This document shows positions 1-30,227 of a stretch of DNA of 64,000 bases, piece by piece. Each line of letters opens with the position of its first letter. The stretch's first letter is position 1. Source of the stretch: an uncultured Clostridia bacterium (GTDB taxonomy: Bacteria; Bacillota; Clostridia; Christensenellales; CAG-917); assembly GCA_947382865.1 (NCBI GenBank), contig CANDBF010000002.1:369-64368 (forward strand), read 5' to 3'. The notes beneath the pieces are model-generated. The model saw only the letters and a list, made by a program, of their open reading frames with translations, was not told the DNA's origin and searched no databases. Made by a program: the position numbers and the translations under genes.

Positions 1-1693
1 CCATATTGTTAAAATAATTACCATTGAATACATTCAGATATGAATATTCCGCATATATAACACTGTAATCACGAACAACATTGGAATACACTTCAACATC
101 ATAGATATTTAGCGTTGTATAACTTGTAGGAACACCTGCGGCATATAAAACACATGTTGCCATAATGTTGTTATAGAAATTTCCACCGAAAACATTACCT
201 TCCGCACTGACAGCGGAATTGTCCGCATAAACTCGGTAACATCTTCCTGCTTTATTGTCATGCATATCAATATCCCAAATAGTGGAAGCGCCCCTAGCTA
301 TAATCATTGAAGCGCCGTCTCCAACTTGGCAATGATCAAATTCACCGCTATAAATATATAATTGAGGAATCATTTTAGCAGCTACGGTATCTGTATTGCC
401 ATTACAAAAGTCAGCACTATTATCTTCACCAGCACCGACTAGTAACCAACCGCTACAGCTATTATAGGAAATACGTCCTCCGTCCCACATCATTTGCCCA
501 GCATATGCAACGGATACTCCATAGGATCCTCTAGTATTTCTTGTTATATTACCTCCATTAAAGAAGAATTGAGCATATCCTAATCCTGGCAATGGTGTAT
601 ACAAAGAACCAGCAGGCAACATTCCAGCTTGCAAACAAATATTTTCTCGACCTACATAAACTGAACATCCAGAGAAAGTAATATGAACATCCCTACTCCA
701 ATAGTCCTGATTCCATGCATCTCCAGGATTCTGCCAATTATGATTCTTGTCGAAAAACCTCATATCTGAAATTTCGCCATCGTTCATTATAAATACAGAG
801 CCTGCATTTGCAAAAACACCGGCACCAGTTCCAAATTTACCGGTATTTCTCATATTATTTTTCGTAAGTACGCTACCTTGTTCCAAATACAGGCATGCGC
901 TTTTTTCTAATGACTCATTATCCATCAATCTCGGAGCGGTCATCACCAGAGAATAACAAGAATAGACACCTTTATTGTCACTATTAATGAATTCGTCTCC
1001 GGAACCATTTAATTCCAAATGCTGAATAGTTAGCGTAGCACCGCTTTCTATGTAAAACATACTACCTGTAAATGATGCGTTTCTTACCGTAGTCTGAATA
1101 TTGGGATAATCTAAGGAATCAAATACGTAATCTTCTAATTGTTCAGGGTCAACAACATTGTTAGATGCATCTTTTATGACCTTTCTCCTTATGCTCTTTC
1201 TGTCTCCCGTTATGTTTGTAATGGAAGTAAGTGTAATGTTAGTACCCGTTGGAATTATGATCGTAGAATCCGCAACCAGATCTATACCGATAACATATGT
1301 AGCAGACTTGGCTAAACTATTTTCAAGGTCGGCAATCATGGTGCTCAGCTGTCCCCAGTTGTACACGCCGTAGCCGTCGTACTGTCCGTATGCGTTGAGG
1401 CTCGGCAAATGAGCTTCTCCCGCGCCAAGAACGTTATAATCCGGTTTTATCTTGTCCTCTTCTTTTAGGACAGGTTTTTCAGGAATTTCAACACTGCCGT
1501 CTGCAGATGGTAAAGATGGGTCAACAATCGGCGTCTCTTCAACTATGGGAGTATCTGTCGGCAATTCCAGCGCGGGCATATTGAACAATCCCGCCACTCC
1601 GCATGCCGTCAGCACCGCTCCTACAAGCAGCACCGCCGATACTATCATCAGCACTCTTGACATCTTCTTTGTCATCTTCCCGGTTTTAGACAT
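1..1693 (-). CDS. Secreted lipoprotein with predicted right-handed beta-helix passenger (Pmp/pectin-lyase-like); partial, 3' end runs off the window
   Basis: Absent from the supplied ORF track because there is no stop inside the window. Own translation of the minus strand from ATG 1693..1691, with AAGGAGAG 7 nt upstream. N-terminus MSKTGKMTKKMSRVLMIVSAVLLVGAVLTAC-GVAG has lipobox LTAC. The frame stays open for 564 codons down to position 2. Beta-helix-like repeats include GATLTIQHLELNG and GAGVFANAGSVFIMNDGEIS. Confidence 0.75.
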   Translation of the reverse strand, partial: MSKTGKMTKKMSRVLMIVSAVLLVGAVLTACGVAGLFNMPALELPTDTPIVEETPIVDPSLPSADGSVEIPEKPVLKEEDKIKPDYNVLGAGEAHLPSLNAYGQYDGYGVYNWGQLSTMIADLENSLAKSATYVIGIDLVADSTIIIPTGTNITLTSITNITGDRKSIRRKVIKDASNNVVDPEQLEDYVFDSLDYPNIQTTVRNASFTGSMFYIESGATLTIQHLELNGSGDEFINSDNKGVYSCYSLVMTAPRLMDNESLEKSACLYLEQGSVLTKNNMRNTGKFGTGAGVFANAGSVFIMNDGEISDMRFFDKNHNWQNPGDAWNQDYWSRDVHITFSGCSVYVGRENICLQAGMLPAGSLYTPLPGLGYAQFFFNGGNITRNTRGSYGVSVAYAGQMMWDGGRISYNSCSGWLLVGAGEDNSADFCNGNTDTVAAKMIPQLYIYSGEFDHCQVGDGASMIIARGASTIWDIDMHDNKAGRCYRVYADNSAVSAEGNVFGGNFYNNIMATCVLYAAGVPTSYTTLNIYDVEVYSNVVRDYSVIYAEYSYLNVFNGNYFNNM

Positions 1694-2316
1694 ATAGGGT
1701 CTCTCCTTTATCGTCGTTGAATGATTTCAACGTTTTTTAGCGATCCGTCTGTCTGCCTTCTTCCCGACTATTTTACCGCTGCGGTATAGTCGCCGTCCTC
1801 TTCGGACACCTCGTCGGAAAGCCGACATAACATACATCACGCTCGATAATTATGTTTATTTTCTGCTACCAACCTATAAAATTGGATAGCAAAATATGCG
1901 GACATATTCCGCTATTTGTCATTTTATCACCTTAACAAACAATATGCAACATAAAATCCAAACAAATTTGAGGAAATTTTTAGCAAATACGCCTTTTGAC
2001 CGCCTGTTTTGAGGATTATATACAGTATTTTCCTCGGTCAAAATTCCCTCTATCCCTTGACATTGCGCAGAGTTTTCACTCCGTTCGGGGCGATTTGTAC
2101 GCGTTGGGATACAATTCATTCGGCATGGTTTTGTTGCATTATCCATCATTTTTCGACACGTTTCGACACGCTTCCACTATTCTCTTATGCTAAGGCGCGC
2201 ATTTTAGTGCTCTCATATTCGAGTATGCAAATATGAATATATATGCATATATCATACTCGATAACTATATTACTCTAATATATTAAAAGTATATTAAATT
2301 AACAACTATTCTTTAA

Positions 2317-2357
2317 GTGTGAGCACGACGAGTCGTCGTATAAGAAACTGCACTGCG
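2317..2357. repeat. 41-nt direct repeat, copy 1 (gtgtgagcacgacgagtcgtcgtataagaaactgcactgcg)
   Basis: 39/41 identical to 2481-2521. Contains the internal palindrome ACGACGA-G-TCGTCGT. A third degenerate copy starts near 2391 (ctgagcacgacg...ctgcg). Copies 2 and 3 are preceded by gcttgata(a)gg. Confidence 0.9.
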
Positions 2358-2480
2358 CACTTAACGCGCTTGCACTTGGCTTGATAGGAACTGAGCACGA
2401 CGTACACTCATTCAAGAGACTACCTGCGTTCGCAGAGCGAACGCCAGTGAGTGACGAGCGCAAAACAACAGCTTGATAAG

Positions 2481-2521
2481 GTGTGAACACTACGAGTCGT
2501 CGTATAAGAAACTGCACTGCG
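2481..2521. repeat. 41-nt direct repeat, copy 2 (gtgtgaacactacgagtcgtcgtataagaaactgcactgcg)
   Basis: Lies 164 bp downstream of copy 1 and differs at 2 positions. Confidence 0.9.
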
Positions 2522-2595
2522 ACGCGCAGGGCGCAAAGAGAGGCGATTAGAGGTTGTTCTTTGTACAAGCAAGGGAGCATTGTTGTTCTCGGAGT

Positions 2596-2623
2596 CCCCG
2601 CAAAACGTCCCTGTTTTGCGGGG
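2596..2623. repeat. 11-bp-stem hairpin CCCCGCAAAAC-gtccct-GTTTTGCGGGG; its core recurs at 29934-29954
   Basis: Perfect inverted repeat read directly. The reverse complement ccccgcaaaacagggacgttt matches ccccacaaaacagggacgttt at 29934-29954 in 20 of 21 positions. Confidence 0.85.
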
Positions 2624-2736
2624 TGAGCTCCCGAGCGAGCGATATTAAGAGCTCTACGGCTGTCGCCCGAGAGCGCAGGTGTCCCCAACAAAGCGCGGGT
2701 TCTGCCCGTATGGGTAGACAGCACGTATTTTCGCGT

Positions 2737-2766
2737 GAAAAAGCGGCGCATCGCGCCGCTTTCTCA
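2737..2766. terminator. GC hairpin AAGCGGCGC-atc-GCGCCGCTT, rho-independent terminator-like in both directions
   Basis: 9-bp stem at 2741-2761. On the minus strand it is followed by TTTTTC, so it is the stronger terminator for transcripts coming from the 3178..3405 gene. On the plus strand it is followed by TTCTC, which is weak. Confidence 0.55.
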
Positions 2767-3110
2767 CAGAAATTGTTTTTTCACCATCAATTTTTATTAG
2801 CTTGAAACGCAAACCGCAATTCAGCAATCGCCAGACCGTTGCTCGCATATCAACCTTTCTTTTGTAAGCGCACGCCGCTTGCTTTCGACTTTATGCGTCG
2901 CAAACCGCTTCGTATGTAAGCAATCCGCAAACTTATATCACTCAACGCTCGACAAAACGCTTCTATGATAGCGCGTGTAAGCGTTACTCAAAGCCGTCTC
3001 ACCGCGCAACGCAGCATGCTTTTCGGGCTTATAAAAGCCTCACAGCCAAGGCGCCGCAACAAACCTGCCTCAACGCAGAATTCGCGCGAATACCTTATTT
3101 CCCTTTATCC

Positions 3111-3206
3111 CGAAGACCAATCCTTCGAGCTGTTTTGTCTCGAAGACCAATCCTTCGAGCTGTTTTGTCTCGAAGGATTACACCAATCCTTCGAGCTGTT
3201 TTGTCA
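3111..3206. repeat. Tandem 30-bp repeat x2 plus a 36-bp variant overlapping the stop codon of CDS 3178..3405
   Basis: cgaagaccaatccttcgagctgttttgtct occurs at 3111-3140 and identically at 3141-3170. The third copy (3171-3206) carries a 6-nt insertion that contains the TAA stop. Each unit forms a hairpin: CTCGAAG/CTTCGAG in the two plain copies, and an 11-bp stem CTCGAAGGATT/AATCCTTCGAG in the gene-proximal copy. Confidence 0.95.
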
Positions 3207-3405
3207 ACTTCTGCAACTGCTCACGCTTGATTTCGATGTCGGCAGTGAACGTTCTGAAAAACTGCATATCAGTCTCGTCGGGAGTGCCCTTGCTTATCAG
3301 AGCTTCGATAAGCGAAGCCTGTGAACGGGAACGCTTTATCTCCAAAAGTCTGATTTCCTCTTCAAGAGCATGGATTTCTTTTGCAATTGAGTTTCTCTTT
3401 GACAT
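3178..3405 (-). CDS. Small coiled-coil protein, 75 aa, unknown function
   Basis: ATG preceded by AAGGAGA. Heptad-like sequence EIHALEEEIRLLEIKR...REQLQKLTKQLEGLV. Lies 67 nt downstream of the giant adhesin gene on the same strand. Confidence 0.65.
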   Translation of the reverse strand: MSKRNSIAKEIHALEEEIRLLEIKRSRSQASLIEALISKGTPDETDMQFFRTFTADIEIKREQLQKLTKQLEGLV

Positions 3406-3472
3406 AATAGTGAGTCTCCTTTTTATTTTATATCAGCCGCCAAAAGACCTCCGCTTTTGACCGTATGCCATG

Positions 3473-6400
3473 TTATTGCTCGACGTCGGCTTTCTCTGCT
3501 TCCGCCTTTTCGCGCGCCTCGGCTTCCGCAAGCGACCTCTTTGCCGCTTCCGCTATCTTGTTTGCTCTTACTGCCGCTATGGTCGCGTCGACCGTAGCCT
3601 TTGTACGCATTGCGATGATTGCCTTGCCCGTGAGCATTTGCAGTATGCCTTTTTCATGCAGGATGTACAGCACCGCCGCAACTACGCCCAAGGAGCCTAT
3701 TACTATAAGCAGTATCGCCCACCACGGCAGACCCGGCTTCTCGAAGACCTCGAAGATGAGGAAATCGGAAAGCGCCATATAATCTTCCGTCTCGCCGACG
3801 GTGACCGTAATCATATACTTGCCGACAGCAAGGTCGCCAAGCACATTCACGCCCGTCGCGGAATCATAATACACTTCGTTCTTGTCGAGGTCGGTGACAA
3901 CGATATGAGCTTCGCCCCAGCGCGACGTTGCGGTAGGCAGATTCTCCTCCGCGTTGAACTTGCCCTGCACCCACGTCTGCACTTTAAGCGCGTCGACAAA
4001 TGTGTTCACGCCCTGCAATACTCTGAAACCTACCGTCGCGGGAACCATTTCGTCATAGTTCTGGCTCGCGTCGACAGTGGAAATCAGATAATAGTTGCCG
4101 TAACCCAGCTTGGAAAGGATTTCGGATACCTCCGCCGATACGCGGCCGTCTTCGAGATAAATATGGTCAAGCCCCTCGCAAACGTCAAGCCCCTGCTCGT
4201 CCCTTGCAACCTTAAACCACATATCGCGCGGATTTGCAAGATATCTGGGCGTCGCCACTATGACGTTTATCGTAGAGTCGAAATCGCCGTACTTCCAAGA
4301 CTGAATGCTAGGCACGCGCTCCCAATAGTTCTGCGCCTTCAAAATAGAGAATTCGCCGACCAGCGTCCTCGTACCCGAGAAGTTGCCTATACCCGTTATC
4401 GTCAAATCCGCAGAGCCCGTAACGACGACGCTCGCGCTCGTAAGCAGATAGTCTACGCCTTGAACAAGCGTTTTGCCCTTGTATGCAAGCGTGATTGTAG
4501 GAGTGTTGTTCGCCTCGCCGTTGTAGGTAACCGCGTGCGAGTGCGCGTTGTAGATTATATCCGAAGCCCACGCCGTGTTGCCAGCGTTCGTAAGCGCAGC
4601 CACCTTGACCGTCAGAGGCACTTCCTTGGCGACGGTCGCATACACGATGCCGTGGTCGTTTACGACATTGTCGTTCCACCAATGCGAATGCTCTTCGTCC
4701 GACTGGAAGTCGGGAGCTTCAACTTTGAGAGTATAATTGCCTGCGGACAGCTCGTACAGATAGCCGTAAAGGTTGTATATGCCAGTGGTCGCCTCTTCCG
4801 AAACTTCGCCGCTCGCAAGGTCTACGTCATAGAACATCAGACCGTTTGAAGCAAATTCTACTTTGAATTTGTCAATCGTATTGCCTTCCTTGTCAAGGAA
4901 AGTGTAATACGCCCAGTCGCCGTGCTCGGGACGGTACGCGTACGCGGTGGAGATGAAATTCTTGTCCGCGTAGGTCCATTCCAACTCAGCTCTTTCCGTC
5001 TCGGTGGTACGCACCGCGTTGTGCGCGGTCACGACGTACCACGTTTTGTTCAGCACCATCGTGTTTTCGCCGCTTACCGTCGTAAAATTGCCGCCGAACG
5101 AAATCGTAACGGAGGTCTGTACGGTGTTGATTTTGCCGATTTCCGCGTCCAAAATCAAATTATGGCTATAAGTGATAGTTGAGTTGTTAAGGTATGCGCC
5201 CAGATTGCCGAGATTGCCCACCGCAAAGTCTCTGTCAAGACGCAGGTTCAGCGCATTGTTGCCGCGATAGTACGCGTATGCGTCGTATATCGACGCGTCT
5301 CCGTTGGTCAGGACGCCGTCCACAAGGAAGCTGACGTTTGCGCCGTCCAGAAGCGAAACCTTATCCTCGCCGAAGTACAGCGACCAAAGTCCTGCCGCCG
5401 CGCCCGATTCGAGATCCGCCGCGTCAATGTCTATCGTGATAGGCAGAATGGATACCTGAGAAACCTTATCCTTATTATGAAGAACTGCGTTGCCTTCTCC
5501 GTCGATGCGGACGGTATAATTAAGCGCGTTTACAAAATCCAAGGTCGTCCCGTTGGCGTCGCTGAAAACGAGAGTCAGATGTTCGCTGCGGTCGGGGACG
5601 TCATAACCGTAACCTTCCGCATACACGTACTCTACGTAATCCAGACGGTCTCCGTTCTGATTTCTGATGCTAAGCTTCGCGCGGATATTTGCGCTCTGGT
5701 CGGCGCCGTTGTACAGGAAGCCCGTCGTTGACGACACAAAACCGTTCTCTGCCGCGTTGTAGTATTCCCACTCGACTACGTACGTCAAATCATACGTAAG
5801 CGTAATGGCGAAACCCAACTCCACCGTGCCGGCGTAGTTGCCGATACCGCTTATTACGGCGGAAGCGCCGTCGCCTATATTTACGTTGTTCTTGTATTCA
5901 ACCGAATAGTCGTTGCCAAGGCTCAGACCCGCGTCAGTACCGCTGGGCAAAGTCGCCTTTACCGTCGGCTTTACCTCCTGACCGGAGAAGCCGAAAGACG
6001 TGCAGTTGTTTCCATCGGCGTTGATGAGGTTGAAAATGAAATTCTCTTCAATCGAAGCGGGCGCGACGTAAACTCCGAACGCAACGGTCGCGGAGCCGAC
6101 GGTGAAATCAACGCTATGGATAGAAACGTCCTGTCCGTCATATTTAACGTCGCCGTACTCGTTGGCTTCGTTTACTTCATCGTTCAATTTTATACCGACT
6201 ACCTTTTTCTCGCCGTAGGTAAACGATACGCCGTAGTCCGAAACGGTCACGTAATCGTCTTCGCCTTCGTATTTAACCGACCATTGCAGCGGCGACGTAT
6301 TTTCAAGCGCTATTACGCTGCCGTCGTTTGCAAGCGCTACGCTGTCAGAGACGGAAGTAACGCCGATAGATTTTTGGAAAACCACATTTCTAATTGGGTT

Positions 6401-8281
6401 GATTGCATATCCGTCGGGAGAATTGTACTTGGCATAATCCGAAATCAAAGCTGCGCCGCATGTTCCGTAGACCGTTACGCGCGCCGCATCGTCGAATGCC
6501 TGTACGGCTTTGACTTTAACGCCCGATACGCAGTCGATAACGTTTACGATCGCTTTGCCGCCGACGTTAACGAAGCTTTCGCTACCCTCGCCGTAAATCT
6601 TGCCGTCAACGGTAGCGTTCTTTATAGTCGCGGAAGCAAAGTTTCCGCCGAAGCTCTTGATGTATATGGCTTCGCCGTCTGTTTCGTCGATAACGGCATT
6701 ATTGTCAAAAGAAATCTGACCGTTATTTACGTAAACTGCAACTTTGACCGAGCCGCCGACCACACTGTTTGTCAACGTTCCGCCTGCAACCTCGACTTTT
6801 GCGCCCGATTCCACATAGTACGCAGTGCCCGTTTCGGCTTTGTTATCGCTCATATCCGCGCCGCTGAAACGCGCTCCGGTGTCCATTCCTGTTTGTACAA
6901 CGCCGCCCTGAACAGCGCTGTTATCGGTAAAGACGCTGTCTGAAACGATAAGAGCCTCGGGACGGAACCATGTGCTTTCGCCCGATACGTACAACGCGCC
7001 GCCGTTTCCTTCGGTTTCATTGCCCTCAAAGTTGCATCCGCTTATTTCCGTCAAGCTGTACACGGTTACCGTAGCGCCGTCGCCTGCGGAAACGTTATCC
7101 TCGCTGAACACCGCGCCGCCCGCCGTTTTGGCATAGTTGTTGGTAAATACCGAGTTATCGATTTTTGCGGTCTGGCAACCCGAAATAAATATCGCGCCGC
7201 CTCTTGCGTCTGCACCGGTTGCATTATTGTCGGAAACAGTAACATTTGAAACGTTTACGGTCGCTTTCTGCGCATAAATTGCGCCGCCGTTGCCCGTAGC
7301 CGAGTTATTGGCGATAAGACCGCCGTTTATAACGATATTCGCATTTGTATTGGAGTCGGTGGGAGTGGTAGCGATAGCGCCGCCGTTGCCCGCCGTTTGT
7401 CTCTCTTCCGTTTCCACAGGGGCAGGATCGGGCGTTTCTTCGCCGTCGCCGCCTATGTCGGGAATTTCGGGCTCTCCGACAGTCACGGTATAGGTCAGCG
7501 ATTTGCTTTCGTTGCCGATAATCGCCGCGCCGTCGTTCATTGTAAACGTCTTGACGTTGGGCGTTACGTAAACCGCGCCGCCGTACTCAGAGGCGCTGTT
7601 CCCGAACAGCGTTCCGCCGCTGAGGGTCACGTTGCCGCCCGAAAGAATCGCTCCGCCCTGAGAGGATTTTCCACCCGTGATGATTCCGCCATTTACGGGG
7701 ACGATATTCCCATCCGAGTCCGTATACTGATATTTTTCATCGGCATGCGTCGCAGTAGGATTACTGTCTACGATTTCGACGTTTCCGTGCAGATACATAA
7801 CGGAGCCGACGGGTCCTGTGGGATTGTTTGTCCAATTATCCTCGGGAATATTGCGGTTGATAATATGACCGTTCAAATCCAAAATGATATTCGCTTTGGT
7901 AGGCACCATCAGTCCGCCGTTGTTGAAAGCTCTTTGCGAACCGGTTTCATTCCCGAATACGCCGCCGGCAGCAGTCCAGTTATCCGCAAGCAAAACCTTG
8001 ACAAGTCTGTTGTCGGCCTTTTTGTCAGTGAGCTCGACCGCTTTTCTGATTGCCTCTTTCCATCCGTCGGCAGCCTGTTTGGTTCTGTAATAGAAAGTAG
8101 TCTCAGTATTTACGCCTATCTCGCCCAAAACATATGTATATGCCGGAACAACTTCCGCCGACGGCTGCGCGCTGCTGGCGTCCGCGACCGAAGTCGTGAT
8201 ACCTACGAACAGACATGCAACAAGCAACGCGGCGAGAATTACTGCCATACCGTTACGCACTATCAGAGATTTGGATTTCAT
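3473..8281 (-). CDS. Giant surface protein (1602 aa): signal/TM, Pmp-type beta-helix repeats, Ig-like repeat region, C-terminal TM anchor and charged tail
   Basis: Start moved from the track's 8368 to ATG 8281 (AAGGAGAA upstream; N-terminus MKSKSLIVRNGMAVILAALLVACLFVG). GGA[ILV][YF]-type motifs recur (GGAVYV, GGAIYAQ, GGAIFISG, GGAVFSE, GGALYVSG), as in polymorphic-membrane-protein repeats. C-terminus is LPWWAILLIVIGSLGVVAAVLYIL followed by a K/E/A-rich tail. Confidence 0.85.
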   Translation of the reverse strand: MKSKSLIVRNGMAVILAALLVACLFVGITTSVADASSAQPSAEVVPAYTYVLGEIGVNTETTFYYRTKQAADGWKEAIRKAVELTDKKADNRLVKVLLADNWTAAGGVFGNETGSQRAFNNGGLMVPTKANIILDLNGHIINRNIPEDNWTNNPTGPVGSVMYLHGNVEIVDSNPTATHADEKYQYTDSDGNIVPVNGGIITGGKSSQGGAILSGGNVTLSGGTLFGNSASEYGGAVYVTPNVKTFTMNDGAAIIGNESKSLTYTVTVGEPEIPDIGGDGEETPDPAPVETEERQTAGNGGAIATTPTDSNTNANIVINGGLIANNSATGNGGAIYAQKATVNVSNVTVSDNNATGADARGGAIFISGCQTAKIDNSVFTNNYAKTAGGAVFSEDNVSAGDGATVTVYSLTEISGCNFEGNETEGNGGALYVSGESTWFRPEALIVSDSVFTDNSAVQGGVVQTGMDTGARFSGADMSDNKAETGTAYYVESGAKVEVAGGTLTNSVVGGSVKVAVYVNNGQISFDNNAVIDETDGEAIYIKSFGGNFASATIKNATVDGKIYGEGSESFVNVGGKAIVNVIDCVSGVKVKAVQAFDDAARVTVYGTCGAALISDYAKYNSPDGYAINPIRNVVFQKSIGVTSVSDSVALANDGSVIALENTSPLQWSVKYEGEDDYVTVSDYGVSFTYGEKKVVGIKLNDEVNEANEYGDVKYDGQDVSIHSVDFTVGSATVAFGVYVAPASIEENFIFNLINADGNNCTSFGFSGQEVKPTVKATLPSGTDAGLSLGNDYSVEYKNNVNIGDGASAVISGIGNYAGTVELGFAITLTYDLTYVVEWEYYNAAENGFVSSTTGFLYNGADQSANIRAKLSIRNQNGDRLDYVEYVYAEGYGYDVPDRSEHLTLVFSDANGTTLDFVNALNYTVRIDGEGNAVLHNKDKVSQVSILPITIDIDAADLESGAAAGLWSLYFGEDKVSLLDGANVSFLVDGVLTNGDASIYDAYAYYRGNNALNLRLDRDFAVGNLGNLGAYLNNSTITYSHNLILDAEIGKINTVQTSVTISFGGNFTTVSGENTMVLNKTWYVVTAHNAVRTTETERAELEWTYADKNFISTAYAYRPEHGDWAYYTFLDKEGNTIDKFKVEFASNGLMFYDVDLASGEVSEEATTGIYNLYGYLYELSAGNYTLKVEAPDFQSDEEHSHWWNDNVVNDHGIVYATVAKEVPLTVKVAALTNAGNTAWASDIIYNAHSHAVTYNGEANNTPTITLAYKGKTLVQGVDYLLTSASVVVTGSADLTITGIGNFSGTRTLVGEFSILKAQNYWERVPSIQSWKYGDFDSTINVIVATPRYLANPRDMWFKVARDEQGLDVCEGLDHIYLEDGRVSAEVSEILSKLGYGNYYLISTVDASQNYDEMVPATVGFRVLQGVNTFVDALKVQTWVQGKFNAEENLPTATSRWGEAHIVVTDLDKNEVYYDSATGVNVLGDLAVGKYMITVTVGETEDYMALSDFLIFEVFEKPGLPWWAILLIVIGSLGVVAAVLYILHEKGILQMLTGKAIIAMRTKATVDATIAAVRANKIAEAAKRSLAEAEAREKAEAEKADVEQ

Positions 8282-8382
8282 CAGTTTTCTCCTTTGAAAA
8301 TCTTCTATACCTACATGAGTTAGTCTATCGACTTTTATGCCAAAAGGCATAACGATAGAACACCGCATAATACAGCGAGTTT

Positions 8383-19196: not shown

Positions 19197-19898
19197 CTAT
19201 TTATTATTTTTCAAAAACATAAATCCGGCTTCCTCTATGGTCTTCGGCTTCGCTGCGGGAGCGACGCATTGCAGTCCGCCGTTGCTCAACATGTGCGGCG
19301 GAAGTCCCGTGCGCATATCGCTGAGATACTGCGAAATTATTGCGTCTTTGACCTTGTCGGAGCGCAGCACGTAATCGTTCAGAAATTGTCCGTCCTCCAT
19401 AAGCTGCTCGGGCGTTCTGAACTTGTCGGCAAGCACGTTAAGCAGAGCGGATTTGAGGCAGTTTTCCTCTTGTCTGAGTTGCGGATTTTCAAGAAGCTGA
19501 TTTGCTATGTCCTTTGCAAACGCTCTGGCGGTGGGGATTTCCGAAAAAAACTTGTCCACCTCGCTCTTCCACTCCTCGTCGCTCCTCGGTTGCTTGCGGT
19601 TTATGCCGTTTTCAAGCTCTTTGAGCCTCTGCGAACGGCGGGTGAATTCCTTTTCCAGCTCGCCGTAAGCGCGCAGCAGTTCCTGCGGGTTTCTGAATTT
19701 GCCCAATTTATGTTTGTTGATTTCCTCATCGTTTGCGGCGTCCGCGATTTCGTTTTCGCCGCTATCCTCGCTTTCCCCTACGATTTCGGGATTGACGCCG
19801 CACGCGTCCTCCTCCGCCGCCTCGGCGGCTGCCATAAACGCCGTAACTCCGCCGTTCTGCGATTCCGTTGCCATATCGAATTTATCGTTCGCTTTCAT
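19197..19898 (-). CDS. Phage scaffolding protein (233 aa, positional call)
   Basis: Start moved from the track's 19928 to ATG 19898 (AAGGAG 6 nt upstream). Acidic, helical, low-complexity sequence between the portal and capsid genes. Confidence 0.55.
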   Translation of the reverse strand: MKANDKFDMATESQNGGVTAFMAAAEAAEEDACGVNPEIVGESEDSGENEIADAANDEEINKHKLGKFRNPQELLRAYGELEKEFTRRSQRLKELENGINRKQPRSDEEWKSEVDKFFSEIPTARAFAKDIANQLLENPQLRQEENCLKSALLNVLADKFRTPEQLMEDGQFLNDYVLRSDKVKDAIISQYLSDMRTGLPPHMLSNGGLQCVAPAAKPKTIEEAGFMFLKNNK

Positions 19899-21768
19899 TT
19901 TCGACTCCTTGTTCAAAACGTTTTTCAAGTTCGCTTATGCCGCTGTCTAGAGCGGACAGCTGCGCGTGCTTTGCAATGTGACTCGCCACTCTGTCGTGCA
20001 GCGCCTTATCCTTGCCGCACTTGGAGGATACGCACATCTTGATATGCTCCGAAATGTGCATAGAATGGTTGTCGTACACGTCGGGGGTAATCTCGCCGTT
20101 CTCGAAGTCGAGATTCTCTTTTAGAGCCTTTTTGCGGTGGATCTCCTCTTCGCTCCTGCCGTTCTCCCAGTTTCCGAAGCCGAGTATTTCAAACAGTCTG
20201 GTCTTCGTATCGGCGGGCATTCTGCCGTCGTTGTCCGTAAACAGACCCAGCTTGAGCAGGTCGTACACCATAGCCCTGCGCGCCGACAGCGTGTCCTCGA
20301 TGTCGTTGAGAGTATCGAACACTATATCCTCGCTGTCGATATTGCTTGCCGAGAACGCGGCTATTTCCACCTCTCCGTTCTCGCCCGTTATACGCTTTAC
20401 TCTGGGCACCTTTGCAAACTGGCGGTAGAGCCTAAGTATCTGCTTGCCTATACGCTTGACCGCCTCGCGCAGGCTGTCTGCGGTGAGCGATATTCTCGTA
20501 TCGTCCTGTTCGAGCAAAAGCGAGATAGCCGTGCCCGACGACACGTTGGACGGCACCTGCGAATAGGTCGTCACCTCGCTCACTCCGCTTATCATCACAA
20601 ATTCGTTGAGTAGCTTTTCCTCCTCGCGTGAAAACTCGGACGGCACCTGTGAGGGGCTCAGCATAATCGGCGGAGTGCTCCCCTGTCTGTATACGACGAT
20701 TTTTCCGGGCGGCAGTCCCTCCTCCTCCAAGAGATCGGTGTCCACCGCTCCGTCCTCCACCGCGAGCACGCCCACGGCTATGCGGTTCATAAACTCGTGC
20801 TTTCTGTTTTTGACGGCGTTGTAGGCGCGCTGTACGGGGATAATTCGCTCTACGACGGACGTTCCGAAGAAGTTAGTCAGATTGTCTATGCACACCTGTC
20901 TTGCAAAGGGATATTCCCTCTTTCCGTTTTCGCCGTTTACGTACGGCAGGTCGCCCATATGCAAGAGTCTGTCGCCCGCGACTATAATAAGTCTGCCGTT
21001 GGGGTGCTCGGCGGTAGGCATCTCGTACTTTTCTATTACGGTAACGCTGTCGTCCCTCTTCTCGCTCACCATCTTGGGTACGGTGGCGGTATAGCCGTAG
21101 CCTCCCGCGACTTGCGCGTTGTCGAAGGAAAACACGTTTACTTCGCCGCCCTTTACCTCCTTATTCCAAATTCTCTTGACCTCGGCGGCGGTGAGCACCT
21201 TCACGTGCATAATTGACGACTGCTTATCTATATCGGTTATGGCGATATCCTCGGGGAATATCTCGAAGGGCGGACAGAGCGTGATGTCCACGTCCCCCTC
21301 GCGCACCAAGCCGTCCGCGTCGAGAGCGCGGCCCTTTTCCGCGGCCCAAGTGACCTTGAAAAACGCGCTTCCCGTAATCTCGCTCCAAGTGTTTGCAAGC
21401 GACAGCTGTGCGGAAAAATCGTTCTCCTTGCAGACTGCGTCGATGAGCTTTGTCGCAAGAGACGCGGACGCGACGTCGTCGTCATCGGAGGTAGCGGGTC
21501 TCACGGTAGCCTTGGCTTTTACTCTCGACAGCTTCGCAAGACGCGTTTCGAGAATAGGCGCAATATGGTTGTACACCTCGCGCTGTTGCCAGAAATACTG
21601 CTTGCCGTCGTCCTCGATATCTCCCTTCGGCGAAATCTGCGCAAACTGGTTGCCCATCACGAAATTCATATTGAGCCGCCAGTTGAGTTCAACGGGTCGT
21701 CTCGCTTCCTGCCTTTTCTTAAAATCGGCATTCACCTCGGAAACGATTTTTTGTTCCAAATCAGACAT
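19882..21768 (-). CDS. Phage portal protein (628 aa)
   Basis: AAGGAGAA RBS. Size and position fit a portal, lying downstream of TerL and the 102-aa gene. The N-terminus NWRLNMNFVMGNQF...REVYNHIAPILETRLAKL is typical of portal families (from memory). Confidence 0.75.
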   Translation of the reverse strand: MSDLEQKIVSEVNADFKKRQEARRPVELNWRLNMNFVMGNQFAQISPKGDIEDDGKQYFWQQREVYNHIAPILETRLAKLSRVKAKATVRPATSDDDDVASASLATKLIDAVCKENDFSAQLSLANTWSEITGSAFFKVTWAAEKGRALDADGLVREGDVDITLCPPFEIFPEDIAITDIDKQSSIMHVKVLTAAEVKRIWNKEVKGGEVNVFSFDNAQVAGGYGYTATVPKMVSEKRDDSVTVIEKYEMPTAEHPNGRLIIVAGDRLLHMGDLPYVNGENGKREYPFARQVCIDNLTNFFGTSVVERIIPVQRAYNAVKNRKHEFMNRIAVGVLAVEDGAVDTDLLEEEGLPPGKIVVYRQGSTPPIMLSPSQVPSEFSREEEKLLNEFVMISGVSEVTTYSQVPSNVSSGTAISLLLEQDDTRISLTADSLREAVKRIGKQILRLYRQFAKVPRVKRITGENGEVEIAAFSASNIDSEDIVFDTLNDIEDTLSARRAMVYDLLKLGLFTDNDGRMPADTKTRLFEILGFGNWENGRSEEEIHRKKALKENLDFENGEITPDVYDNHSMHISEHIKMCVSSKCGKDKALHDRVASHIAKHAQLSALDSGISELEKRFEQGVENESER

Positions 21769-21787
21769 ATTTTTCTCCTTTCTATTT

Positions 21788-22096
21788 TTAACGCCGCTCG
21801 GACGCTATGTCCTTTGCGGCGTTTATTTTCATATTCTCTTCCTTTTCCAGCTCCTTTAACAGCCTTCGTCTTTCGCGTTCGAGCTCCTCGTCCGAGAGCT
21901 CCGAAATCCCGTCCTCCTCGCTCAGCTCCAAATAAGTTTTAAGCGCGCCGCTGTCGGGCGGGCAGTATTTTTCCGTCACCTTACGCTTTGTCAGCGCGAT
22001 TTCGCCGTCCTCCTTAACGGCATACTCCTCCTGCACCTCTTTATAGTTGTAGCCCTTAGCTCTTTTAAGCAGAGCTTTCAGAATTTCCCCGTCCAT
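21788..22096 (-). CDS. Small phage protein (102 aa); C-terminal part resembles small-terminase-type sequences
   Basis: AAGAGGGGAAG RBS. The gene overlaps the TerL end by 19 nt. The motif KGYNYKEVQEEY...TKRKVTEKYCPPDSGALKTYLE recalls the G[YF]xYEE...PPD...A segment of Firmicute phage TerS proteins (from memory, weak). Confidence 0.4.
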   Translation of the reverse strand: MDGEILKALLKRAKGYNYKEVQEEYAVKEDGEIALTKRKVTEKYCPPDSGALKTYLELSEEDGISELSDEELERERRRLLKELEKEENMKINAAKDIASERR

Positions 22097-23517
22097 TGTC
22101 TTCCCCTCTTAACGTTGCGTATCAGCTTTTCCTTATCCGCCTGAATCTCCGTCTTGGCGAGCACGGGCAGAGGCGTAGGCTTCGCCTGCGTCATAACGAA
22201 GTATCTCAGCTCGTCAAGCGAATGGTCGTCGACTTTTTTGGGTCTGTCGCCGCGCCCCCACCAATAGCTTTTGATTTCGCGTATCAGGTTTACGCAGTTT
22301 GAAAATATTCGTATTCTAGGCGGTCTTTGCTCAAATAAGGACTTTACGCGCTGTATTCCGCTGTATAAATCCTTGTTTACGTTGGTATTCACCAAAATAC
22401 CCTTTTCGCAGAACAGCTCCGCTACGCTCTTTTCCGAGGCGAGCGTGCGTTGATTCGCCGCGCTGTCGATAAGCGCGTGAAGTCTGCCCTTGCCGTCCGT
22501 AGGCCAGCCGAGAGAGTTTGCGATTCTGAATATTTCCTCCACGTGATAATCGATGTTCTGCCCCGCCTCGTAGTGCTCCGCCACCACGTAAATCACTCCG
22601 TCGTAATCCACCGCATAGAAATGACAGCTGGTCGGATTGGAAAGTCCGGGGTCTATGGAGATATTGTTATACCAGTTTTTAGGAACCGAGAATGGCTCTA
22701 TCACGTGGACGCTTGCGTCGAACTCCGGATACACCAATCCCTCTCCCGTCGAGAATTTCCCGTATCTTCTTGATAGCTGTTCGCTTTTCGGCACGACGGT
22801 TTCCATCGCCTTGACCTCCGTCGGGTCGAGATATGGATTGTCGCTCCATTGCATATATTCGCACCAGACCTCGGGGTCGTCGTTGCAATTTAGTTCGATT
22901 TCGTCATACACCCAAGTGAGACCTTTAAGAGGAGTCATTGTTCCGAATATATCTCCGCGCCTGTCGAACACCCTCATCCTGCATTCGTCGTAAATATCCT
23001 TCGGCGGCTCCTCGTCAAACCACACGAAATCCAACGATACGCCCTGAAACTTCTCTCTCCCTTGGTCGCAGGATTTGAAGCCTATTCTGCTCGTCCCGCC
23101 GAACGCGTTTCTGACGACGATATAGTCGATAACCCCGTATTCGGGCGAAGTATGCTTTCCCTCGCGCATGACTATATCCGCCATATATCTGGGCGAAAGG
23201 TATTTGAGTATTTTCGCCTGCGCCACGTCCCTCTGAACCTGCTGGGACAGACTGACCACCCACCCCGACACGTTGTCCCGATTGCGTCTGAACGGGTGTA
23301 TGCCTCTTGCAAGCCATACGCTCTCGACCGCGCCGCACTCCGTCTTTCCGGAGCGGTTGCCGCCGAACACCCAGCGGTTACGCTTTGCGCACTTATGAAA
23401 AGCCATCTGTTTTTCGTGCACCTTATCGGAGTTATATGCCGCGAGAGAGTCGCTTTTTCTGACGTCGATTTCGTGTTCGATTTTTAGAAGTTTGAAAAGC
23501 GTATCGTTGTCTTTCAT
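22078..23517 (-). CDS. Phage terminase large subunit
   Basis: Walker-A-like FGGNRSGKTECG, DFVWFDEE (Walker B) and a C-terminal nuclease-type VDDHSLDELRY. The track starts at TTG 23553; ATG 23517 was chosen. Neither start has a clear RBS. Confidence 0.85.
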   Translation of the reverse strand: MKDNDTLFKLLKIEHEIDVRKSDSLAAYNSDKVHEKQMAFHKCAKRNRWVFGGNRSGKTECGAVESVWLARGIHPFRRNRDNVSGWVVSLSQQVQRDVAQAKILKYLSPRYMADIVMREGKHTSPEYGVIDYIVVRNAFGGTSRIGFKSCDQGREKFQGVSLDFVWFDEEPPKDIYDECRMRVFDRRGDIFGTMTPLKGLTWVYDEIELNCNDDPEVWCEYMQWSDNPYLDPTEVKAMETVVPKSEQLSRRYGKFSTGEGLVYPEFDASVHVIEPFSVPKNWYNNISIDPGLSNPTSCHFYAVDYDGVIYVVAEHYEAGQNIDYHVEEIFRIANSLGWPTDGKGRLHALIDSAANQRTLASEKSVAELFCEKGILVNTNVNKDLYSGIQRVKSLFEQRPPRIRIFSNCVNLIREIKSYWWGRGDRPKKVDDHSLDELRYFVMTQAKPTPLPVLAKTEIQADKEKLIRNVKRGRQWTGKF

Positions 23518-23654
23518 AAGCCGAGAATAATATCGACGCCGCGCAAAATACAAAAAATTATGTCAATCAAATCCTAATAAATACAAAAAATTCTCTCTGA
23601 AATTGCTCGGAAAGGCTTTCAATTTACAGTTTCTTATAGTATTATATAGGCACT

Positions 23655-29708: not shown

Positions 29709-29990
29709 AGTTTAATACTGTAATTCGCTAAAATGCAAACCGTAGTGCCACACCTCTATCAAGCTGAGGGCGACTTGCTCTGCAAAGGTGAACTGCGGGG
29801 ATTTTTATTAAATTTCCCCCTTCCTCAAGGGTACCGAGGCTTCGCGGTTTGAGAGGTAAGCCCGCTTAGGCTACGCACAATTGCCGGATTGTGCGTTTAA
29901 CGCGTCGCGCCTATTGCGGTCTCTCACTTTTAACCCCACAAAACAGGGACGTTTGATTTAGCTCACATCACACGCGGCGACATTTAGCTG
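29709..29990 (-). promoter_or_regulatory. Long structured 5' leader (candidate cis-regulatory RNA, unclassified) upstream of the membrane protein gene
   Basis: Minus-strand helices read by eye. TGAGAG (29926..29921) pairs with CTCTCA (29855..29850). AGGC (29912..29909) pairs with GCCT (29871..29868). CGCACAAT (29895..29888) pairs with ATTGTGCG (29881..29874). There is also a hairpin GGGGA-12nt-TCCCC. A conserved AT box with TATAAA lies near 29990-30000. Confidence 0.35.
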
Positions 29991-30059
29991 AAATCTATTT
30001 ATAAATTTTTAGGTTTGTTGTCGCTGTGCGTACGCAAAATGCGATACAATCGCATTTTA
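29955..30059. repeat. Dispersed intergenic element, copy A core (~105 nt)
   Basis: Aligns to the reverse complement of 47129-47234. Shared blocks are gatttagctcaca, cacacgcg, ataaatttt, tttgttgtcgctgtgc, aaaatgcg and tcgcatttt. It ends in the hairpin AAAATGCGAT-aca-ATCGCATTTT (30037-30059). Confidence 0.85.
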
Positions 30060-30102
30060 TGTTTGACATTCGGCGCAAAAGACACCCGTACCAATATTTT
30101 AT

Positions 30103-30227
30103 CTAAAACGCGATATTTGGATGCAGTGCAAGGAAGTCAAGCACGCGAGTTGCCCGGTGTACATTTCGTACACGACAATGAGCGCGCACAAGACTGACAC
30201 CGCAAGACGCCAAATAGCGCGTTTTAG
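30103..30227. repeat. 18-bp inverted repeats flanking ~90 bp (long hairpin or MITE-like unit) abutting the J-like gene stop
   Basis: CTAAAACGCGATATTTGG (30103-30120) versus CCAAATAGCGCGTTTTAG (30210-30227): 17/18 complementary. An internal hairpin GTGTAC-gaaat-GTACAC is present. The right arm contains the stop codon at 30224-30226. Confidence 0.8.

Follow-up and report, generated by a model that had tools for sequence, protein, structure and literature searches.

The largest gene-free gap in a 64-kb stretch of DNA from an uncultured clostridial bacterium of the order Christensenellales (contig CANDBF010000002.1, positions 369 to 64,368; these 64,000 nucleotides (nt) are called the window here) holds a GC-rich core that may be an orphan structured RNA module of an undescribed family, encoded on the plus strand and copied into the spacer, a reading to which we give a probability of about 0.4. 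On a crude gene map the gap (1694-3177) measures 1484 nt against a median intergenic gap of 42 nt, the others of at least 300 nt being 318, 318, 352, 515 and 729 nt long. Its unusual size and the lack of a credible open reading frame (ORF), both remarked on in an original prediction made from the letters of this DNA, are thus real, with the caveat of an ORF of 150 amino acids (aa) on the minus strand. The same prediction took the gap for one non-coding RNA unit of about 1.5 kb, and this did not hold, as only the interval of about 2295-2717 is module-like. The remainder is, on sequence comparison, the leader, promoter zone, terminator and decaying 3′ tail of the neighboring minus-strand genes, and the gap as a whole is best described as a mosaic spacer separating two minus-strand surface-protein transcription units (Table 1). 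What survives of the earlier claim is a discrete, conserved, non-coding and hairpin-rich module of 330-420 nt, which makes a modest candidate for a new small structured RNA.

Contigs encoding the same 75-aa protein, whose gene borders the gap on the right, form two groups. One is near-identical to the window (L003, L004, L006, L008, L010 and L027, with at least 98% identity), and the other is a sister lineage that is about 84% identical over 9 kb (L001, L002, L011 (GTDB representative)). The sister lineage keeps both flanks of the core (1400-2310 and 2733-2873), and at the spot corresponding to 2311-2732 all three of its contigs carry an unrelated AT-rich insert of 389 nt (38% GC, fold z -1.1; 10666-11054 in L001), which has no BLASTN similarity to the window core. 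The module is therefore dispensable at this locus. The limits of the replaced block nearly match those of the homology between the core and a second copy found elsewhere (2295-2717), and from this agreement we conclude that the core is a discrete module present at two unrelated intergenic sites. In 10/10 contigs with the window-type 150-aa ORF the module is single-copy, lies in the same context and shows almost no variation.

The second copy came to light when the 150-aa ORF was compared exhaustively, by phmmer, with 1.84 billion representative proteins; there was a single extra match, P0135 (E = 2e-4). This protein tracks the window's minus frame 0, then frame 1 and then frame 0 again, and such frame switching identifies the match as DNA homology seen through a spurious ORF rather than as a protein family. 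The contigs that carry P0135 or its cluster mate P0136 (L044-L054) are 72-73% identical to 2295-2428 and 88% identical to 2506-2717, the 3′ domain being significantly more similar than the 5′ domain (88% vs. 72%, Fisher p = 2e-4), and they have only two of the 5′ units. Within the best-conserved part of the alignment 1-nt and 2-nt indels disrupt every reading frame. In L047 the module lies directly downstream of a 23S 3′ end (RF02541, 308 bits), a 5S ribosomal RNA (rRNA) gene (RF00001, 94 bits) and a terminator-like hairpin, the last read from the sequence and not flagged by the terminator scan; all four are co-stranded, on the strand matching the plus strand of the window. Beyond the module follow about 285 nt of unrelated sequence, a 50-aa ORF and then a divergent gene with an XRE-type helix-turn-helix domain. 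The second-copy contigs belong to the same ENA assembly series as the window-type contigs and have about half their k-mer coverage in two shared samples, and the second copy may be a paralogue in the same genome or belong to a related organism. In either case conservation reaches beyond one strain, as a copy of 72-88% identity at an unrelated locus, which answers a doubt raised with the original prediction. As a separate observation, L044 (read as the reverse complement) carries the last ~35 nt of the 5S gene together with the terminator twice, at 1-87 and 288-374, shortly before the second copy. The two occurrences are 94% identical and separated by 200 nt, and L047 has only one, a sign that the end of the rRNA operon was rearranged or underwent an att-like duplication.

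The two loci have a short AT-rich motif, TAAATTAAC, immediately left of the module, and the same motif is seen in the sister lineage, 7 nt ahead of the terminator, at what, to judge from its position, looks like an unoccupied site. This suggests that insertion proceeded via AT-rich microhomology or into a preferred target, or it may be a chance similarity in AT-rich DNA. The uneven divergence of the two copies in turn suggests either that the 3′ 210 nt are constrained or that a conversion took place later. In the scenario that we favor, an ancestral module of about 330 nt, with its 3′ 210 nt under constraint, would have been copied into the spacer by recombination at the AT-rich motif, and a later internal duplication would have enlarged the 5′ part in the window's lineage, giving rise to the 41-nt repeats described below. 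A plus-strand transcript would then run into the terminator of the locus and stop 17 nt beyond the module. As no plus-strand gene follows the module, any function would be exerted in trans, by a regulatory or protein-binding RNA, and not as a leader. The conservation of the terminator 17 nt downstream and the near-invariance of the module in at least 10 assemblies support this reading. From what is generally known of trans-acting small and medium-sized RNAs with their own terminator, the module resembles them in being intergenic, non-coding, predicted to be structured and followed by an intrinsic terminator, but it differs from them in that the scan found no promoter, that the terminator is the locus's, and that with 330-420 nt it is longer than most small RNAs.

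Compared with shuffled sequences the core folds with z = -4.2 on the plus strand and -4.0 on the minus strand. The description of the GC-rich core as non-coding and hairpin-rich is borne out. The minimum free energy (MFE) of the 3′ domain is -90.1 kcal/mol on the plus strand vs. -77.4 on the minus strand. RNAalifold predicts 63 pairs for this domain, and six one-sided transitions fall at paired positions, all of them still pairing via G-U on the plus strand. We assigned the module to the plus strand since the other copy is co-directional with the rRNA operon and this strand folds more stably; taken together, the MFE, the G-U-compatible changes and the co-orientation with the rRNA genes somewhat favor a plus-strand transcript, as far as such predictions go. 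The mosaic make-up of the gap, the limits of the module, its second copy and the frame loss between the copies are directly shown by the comparisons, whereas the transcription, strand, structure and any function of the module are what we infer from them. In the covariation analysis proposed along with the original prediction, the six one-sided changes are compatible with pairing and 0/63 pairs changed on both sides; the structure was fitted to the same sequences that were used for testing, and as these represent two lineages only, shuffle controls for covariation carry no information.

Several observations weigh against a functional RNA. The sister lineage lacks the module at the same site, and both loci are terminator-to-promoter DNA in which neutral insertions can persist. 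Among the 63 predicted pairs no compensatory two-sided change is seen between the two lineages, and in the fold predicted from the window's own sequence 10 substitutions preserve a pair and 11 disrupt one on the plus strand (5 and 12 on the minus strand), and stems show no depletion of substitutions. Overall the core folds about equally well on both strands, no Rfam family matched it, the promoter scan revealed no convincing plus-strand promoter before the module at either locus, and the terminator scan found none after the module's other copy. Finally, the uneven divergence could stem from a later gene conversion of the 3′ part.

Most of these points are what would be expected if the module were passive DNA, namely a functionless rRNA-distal spacer or the edge of a mobile element that was copied once by illegitimate or microhomology-mediated recombination and persists because its position is selectively neutral. 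We regard this as a close rival of the RNA reading and as a real possibility, if not one that we would put first. Both copies lie between a terminator and the next promoter and have an AT-rich motif in common at their left junctions, the module lacks a promoter, a terminator of its own and compensatory changes, its stems are not spared by substitutions in the single-sequence fold, and its 5′ part tolerates both a duplication and 28% divergence. The unrelated insert at the same spot in the sister lineage also recalls the "switched" intergenic regions, in which one gene pair encloses non-homologous DNA in different lineages (Piggy analysis, PMC9944727). As in those, the flanking genes are the same and the edges conserved, while the central 420 nt of the window show no BLASTN similarity to the 389 nt of the sister lineage. 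Unlike in those, only the center is switched here, the outer parts being homologous, and the inserted piece has a homologue at an rRNA-distal locus, so that a likely kind of donor site can be named. Passive DNA accounts less well for the 3′ 210 nt, which are markedly better conserved than the 5′ part and also exceed the neutral-looking non-coding flanks (54-80% and ~69%, the only comparison available), for a fold energy 4 standard deviations below that of shuffled sequences, and for a module that is intact and near-invariant in all contigs. The insert of the sister lineage has features of its own: in L001 (10666-11054) it contains a 15-codon ORF (MYNHNYYETIQIYNS) after a good AAGGAG ribosome-binding site (RBS), and it is flanked by two similar AT-rich words, ATATTAAAACC on one side and ATATTAAATTAAC on the other, so that this insert, too, looks as if it had been inserted at the same target.

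The two 41-nt repeats on which the original prediction leaned were found as described, at 2317-2357 and 2481-2521, with 39/41 matching positions and 164 nt apart, and their 30-nt words have no match anywhere in shuffled sequence. The third, degenerate copy is weak: an exact 11-mer, TGAGCACGACG, is present, but the matches are otherwise scattered (local alignment p ~0.003). A fourth and a fifth unit at 2553-2735 were considered and rejected, as they are not supported by alignment tests. As a basis for a large RNA the repeats fail, since the segment of about 2429-2505 arose by expansion in the window's lineage only and the second module copy lacks the 41-nt duplication. The arrangement has some likeness to a decayed orphan CRISPR-like mini-array, or to another processed repeat RNA, as the repeat GTGAGCACGACGAGTCGTCGTATAAGAAAC has a stem-loop ahead of ...GAAAC and is itself preceded by an AT-rich "leader." CRISPR arrays have at least three regularly spaced, near-identical repeats with unrelated spacers, usually together with cas genes. 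Here there are two good copies and one weak one at irregular spacings of 72 and 92 nt, the first 9 nt (TGCACTGCG) of the would-be spacers after both good copies are the same, the units can be aligned over ~75 nt with an hmm-based method, and the duplication is missing from the second copy. A 21-mer of the repeat occurs in 0/185,579 GTDB species-representative genomes, although this word is specific to the window type and would have missed the other type, and no cas family was detected among the ~20 window ORFs scanned with Pfam. An array of this kind is therefore very unlikely indeed.

The 3′ domain is dominated by a long hairpin, whose 11-bp stem at 2596-2623 (loop GTCCCT) had already been recognized in the original prediction and is confirmed here as the core of the longer structure. 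This hairpin, CCCCGCAAAAC-GTCCCT-GTTTTGCGGGG, has a half-decayed relative on the minus strand at 29939-29956 (2 mismatches in 18) and another in a different species (L031-L033; 1199-1227 in L031), where it lies downstream of a nucleotidyltransferase gene and has the same GTCCCT loop and one compensated pair (G-C to A-T). The first relative falls in a second ORF-poor gap of the window (29709-30223; 515 nt, 47% GC, fold z about -2.6 to -3.0, no Rfam hit); a wider homology between this gap and the core was considered and rejected, as only a 22-nt hairpin word is common to both.

Recurrence of the hairpin, with a compensated pair in the other species, is one of the traits by which the module might be a small non-autonomous mobile element or a composite of intergenic repeats, comparable to MITE, PATE, REP/BIME or BOX elements, that uses an AT-rich target near terminators and is mobilized in trans. 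Others are the sharp boundaries common to two unrelated loci, the same 9-nt motif left of both loci and also at the module-free site, and an internal unit number that varies within a hairpin-rich sequence. From general knowledge of REP/BIME, pneumococcal BOX and the IS200/IS605-derived PATEs, the likeness extends to the hairpin-rich make-up, the variable number of 5′ units, the position close to a terminator, the lack of long terminal inverted repeats and a short conserved motif at the left end. MITE-, REP- and BOX-type elements come in tens of copies. The module, on the contrary, has an apparent copy number of one or two: it is known from two loci, with one copy in the 64 kb, and profile searches of the window and 54 loci (~340 kb) gave no further copies. 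Its context is the same in 10/10 window-type contigs, there are no terminal inverted repeats (8-nt seed) and no target duplication around the window copy, the left-end and right-end hairpins are dissimilar, and no remnant of a transposase (Pfam, any frame) or of TnpB was found. We therefore consider a mobile element improbable.

The 150-aa ORF (2299-2751, minus strand) covers the whole GC-rich block and is called as a gene in several assemblies, and 150 open codons within 476 nt at 52-57% GC are unusual (~1-2% by chance in a rough estimate), which could speak for an orphan protein gene. Its frame, however, is lost in the homologous copy, its start codon lies inside the terminator hairpin, and the 41-nt repeats, being 164 nt apart, fall into different frames. 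With its many Arg, Ser and Cys residues the translation is not protein-like in composition, there is no Pfam domain, and among the 1.84 billion representatives the sole relative is the frame-shifted DNA homologue; in a word-indexed protein search the ORF matched itself only. We hold a protein gene to be highly improbable, and the 150-aa "hypothetical protein" annotated in several assemblies should be treated as spurious. A 21-codon ORF behind AGGGAG was rejected as well, since its changes are all non-synonymous and an earlier stop occurs in the other copy. The possibility of a fragmented pseudogene had been raised with the original prediction; six-frame translations had no hits to Pfam families at E ≤ 1, and when the genes lying beyond the 75-aa gene in other species served as tblastn queries the gap gave no match, so that no recognizable pseudogene is present and the idea of the core as a remnant of such a following gene was discarded.

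A known large RNA family (ROOL, GOLLD, OLE, HEARO, raiA, 6S, RNase P, tmRNA or SRP) too diverged to be recognized by eye is something we can hardly credit. The GC-rich, hairpin-dense sequence and the phage-like genes (portal, terminase) 17-20 kb away could be taken to speak for it, but Rfam 15 covariance models gave 0 matches in the whole 64 kb at gathering thresholds, and at E ≤ 10 only unrelated, chance-level matches in 1500-3500 (13-22 bits vs. thresholds of 37-90). The sister-lineage locus had no match either, and in the second-copy contig L047 only rRNA was detected. The earlier failure to match the sequence to tmRNA, RNase P, SRP, 6S or riboswitches is thereby confirmed, and the suggestion of a ROOL/GOLLD-type RNA is not borne out, as neither of these two families matched even at E ≤ 10. 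ROOL/GOLLD-type large RNAs are conserved across many species and often lie beside tRNAs or inside prophages. The likeness to ROOL and GOLLD (RF03087, RF01998) consists in a long, GC-rich, hairpin-dense non-coding sequence of a Firmicute with phage-like genes in the window; the differences are that the module of only 330-420 nt has no covariance-model match, is known from two loci of one narrow clade (near-identical contigs and one diverged copy beside an rRNA operon), is absent from the loci of 16 related species and has no adjoining tRNA or prophage. ARAGORN detected no tRNA or tmRNA in the window, BLASTN against phage and plasmid collections gave no match, and six exact words (from the core, the leader and conserved 3′-domain segments) had 0 matches in the viral collection. 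The idea of a 1.5-kb ROOL/GOLLD-like RNA can be dropped.

A more far-reaching form of the RNA reading, which we consider doubtful, is that the module is the founder of an undescribed family of ~330-nt plus-strand structured RNAs in uncultured gut Christensenellales, whose native site would be just distal to rRNA operons and copies of which could enter further terminator-promoter gaps, the 3′ 210 nt being the functional core and the 5′ part a tolerant, expandable array of hairpins. Should the module prove to be a genuine RNA, an uncultured and little-studied gut clade would gain another orphan structured RNA, and the module's link to an rRNA operon and its ability to move between intergenic sites would be the points of interest. 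If it is passive DNA, it would be a case of ordinary intergenic "switching" beside fast-evolving surface-protein genes.

Table 1. Features in and around the gap at 1694-3177 of the window, with nucleotide identity to the sister lineage where blocks were compared.
Position	Strand	Feature	Identity to sister lineage	Details
up to 1693	minus	Left neighbor, surface-protein gene		Lipoprotein-like, ATG at 1693, at least 564 aa
1573-1972	minus	Block near-identical between lineages: downstream gene start, RBS, 5′ leader	96-100% (vs. L001; adjacent DNA 54-90%)	First 40 codons (lipoprotein signal peptide), RBS (AAGGAGAG), ~220-nt 5′ untranslated region, weak promoter
1694-1925	minus	Predicted structured 5′ leader of surface-protein gene		Multi-branch domain closing just upstream of RBS
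1949-1921	minus	Putative weak sigma-70-like promoter		TTGCAT 1949-1944, 17-nt spacer, TAAAAT 1926-1921; from reading the sequence
1973-2172		Spacer, poorly conserved	54-80%	
2151-2174		Direct repeat (TTTCGACACG) ×2.4		Perfect 10-bp unit; TRF and promoter scan
2173-2310		Block with AT-rich zone	77-90%	
2175-2294		AT-rich zone		33% GC
2305-2277	minus	Promoter-like site		TTGTTA, 17-nt spacer, TATATT; runs 11 nt beyond AT-rich zone into junction motif
2286-2304		Junction motif		AAAAGTATATTAAATTAAC
2295-2717	plus	Non-coding module ("core")		~423 nt in window, ~330 nt in other known copy
2311-2732		Block with GC-rich core	no similarity	
2317-2521	plus	5′ domain		Two 41-nt repeats and weak third copy (2392-2421)
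2506-2717	plus	3′ domain		Best conserved part; long hairpin 2589-2635 and further GC-rich hairpins
2718-2734		Junction sequence, 17 nt		Absent from the other module copy and from the sister lineage
2733-2873		Block with terminator hairpin and invariant 36-mer (2765-2800)	86.5%	
2735-2767	both	Intrinsic-terminator hairpin, bidirectional		15-nt arms, T-runs on both strands
2765-2873	minus	Conserved block past terminator		Includes invariant 36-mer
2874-3103	minus	Fast-diverging 3′ tail of 75-aa gene		Fold z = -2.6
2874-3136		Tail block	unalignable or ~69%	
3104-3205	minus	30-nt tandem repeat ×3.2		Duplicates last codons and stop of 75-aa gene
from 3137		End of 75-aa gene	homology resumes	
3178-3405	minus	Right neighbor, 75-aa coiled-coil protein gene		137 homologues at E ≤ 1e-5, no Pfam family
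3473-8368		1631-aa surface protein with beta-helix-type repeats		75-aa ORF comes after it

Read 5′ to 3′ on the minus strand, the spacer runs from the end of the 75-aa gene (3178) through a variable 3′ tail with the duplicated gene end to the terminator (2767-2735), and on through the GC-rich core and an AT-rich promoter/operator zone to the structured 5′ leader and the next gene. The best-folding element of the region is this leader (1694-1925), with an MFE of -74.3 vs. -49.7 kcal/mol for shuffled sequences (z = -5.65) and identical MFE and centroid structures. It has no Rfam match, and it may be a cis-regulatory RNA. The promoter-like hexamers TTGCAT/TAAAAT upstream of it fail the 4-of-6 rule that the promoter scan applies to the -35 hexamer. 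The 100% identity reached within the leader block includes synonymous sites of the signal peptide, which makes recent recombination a more likely cause than selection alone, and the block (1573-1972) accordingly points to a recent recombination or gene conversion between the lineages. A 76-aa ORF at 1919-2149 is not open in L001.

The direct repeat TTTCGACACG is unique in the window, is partly kept in L001 and shares bases with the -35 hexamers of two weak, divergently oriented promoter-like sites (on the plus strand 2163-2191, on the minus strand 2166-2138). A response regulator could bind there; genes for a GGDEF/HD-GYP protein of this class and for an Hpt protein lie 6-8 kb away. The AT-rich zone contains, just as first described, a 9-bp inverted repeat, TCGAGTATG (2219-2227) and CATACTCGA (2253-2261), around the 14-bp palindrome ATATATGCATATAT (2239-2252), and neither the palindrome nor the full inverted repeat is kept in L001.

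The closing hairpin of the original prediction is real and longer than was then given, with 15-nt arms at 2735-2767. It is present in L001, which lacks the module, and was therefore assigned to the locus and not to the module. Its five differences in L001 (three in the loop and two compatible with pairing) fit a functional bidirectional terminator. A 64-aa ORF across the conserved block past it is probably spurious, since it has ~10 aa changes in 47 codons and runs through the hairpin. The recurring words of the tail, CGCAAAC and TGTAAGC, are both present three times as had been noticed, but not clearly beyond chance (P = 0.06). The 30-nt tandem repeat varies in copy number between strains (L003 has one unit fewer, and L043 a 6-nt insertion), each of its units forms a predicted hairpin that the scan scored as a plus-strand terminator, and several metagenome contigs break at it.

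In 16 other species, all uncultured Christensenellales and Clostridia, the related loci mostly have the 75-aa gene directly downstream of a large ORF of 700-1770 aa (in the exception, L007, a 181-aa gene is upstream), and judging by this arrangement the two look like a conserved two-gene unit in uncultured Christensenellales. In the closest other lineages homology stops at the stop codon of the 75-aa gene, and the DNA downstream of it holds a nucleotidyltransferase gene, an ABC transporter or other genes. As this downstream DNA is unrelated in other species, the entire gap is confined to a single small clade.

At a distance of 17-20 kb from the gap, genes for a P22-like portal protein and a large terminase subunit (Pfam) lie within 19882-23553. 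They are surrounded by cellular genes encoding a tRNA methyltransferase, a phosphofructokinase and a class I (Trp/Tyr-type) tRNA synthetase, and this suggests that the cluster is a prophage remnant or resembles a gene-transfer agent.

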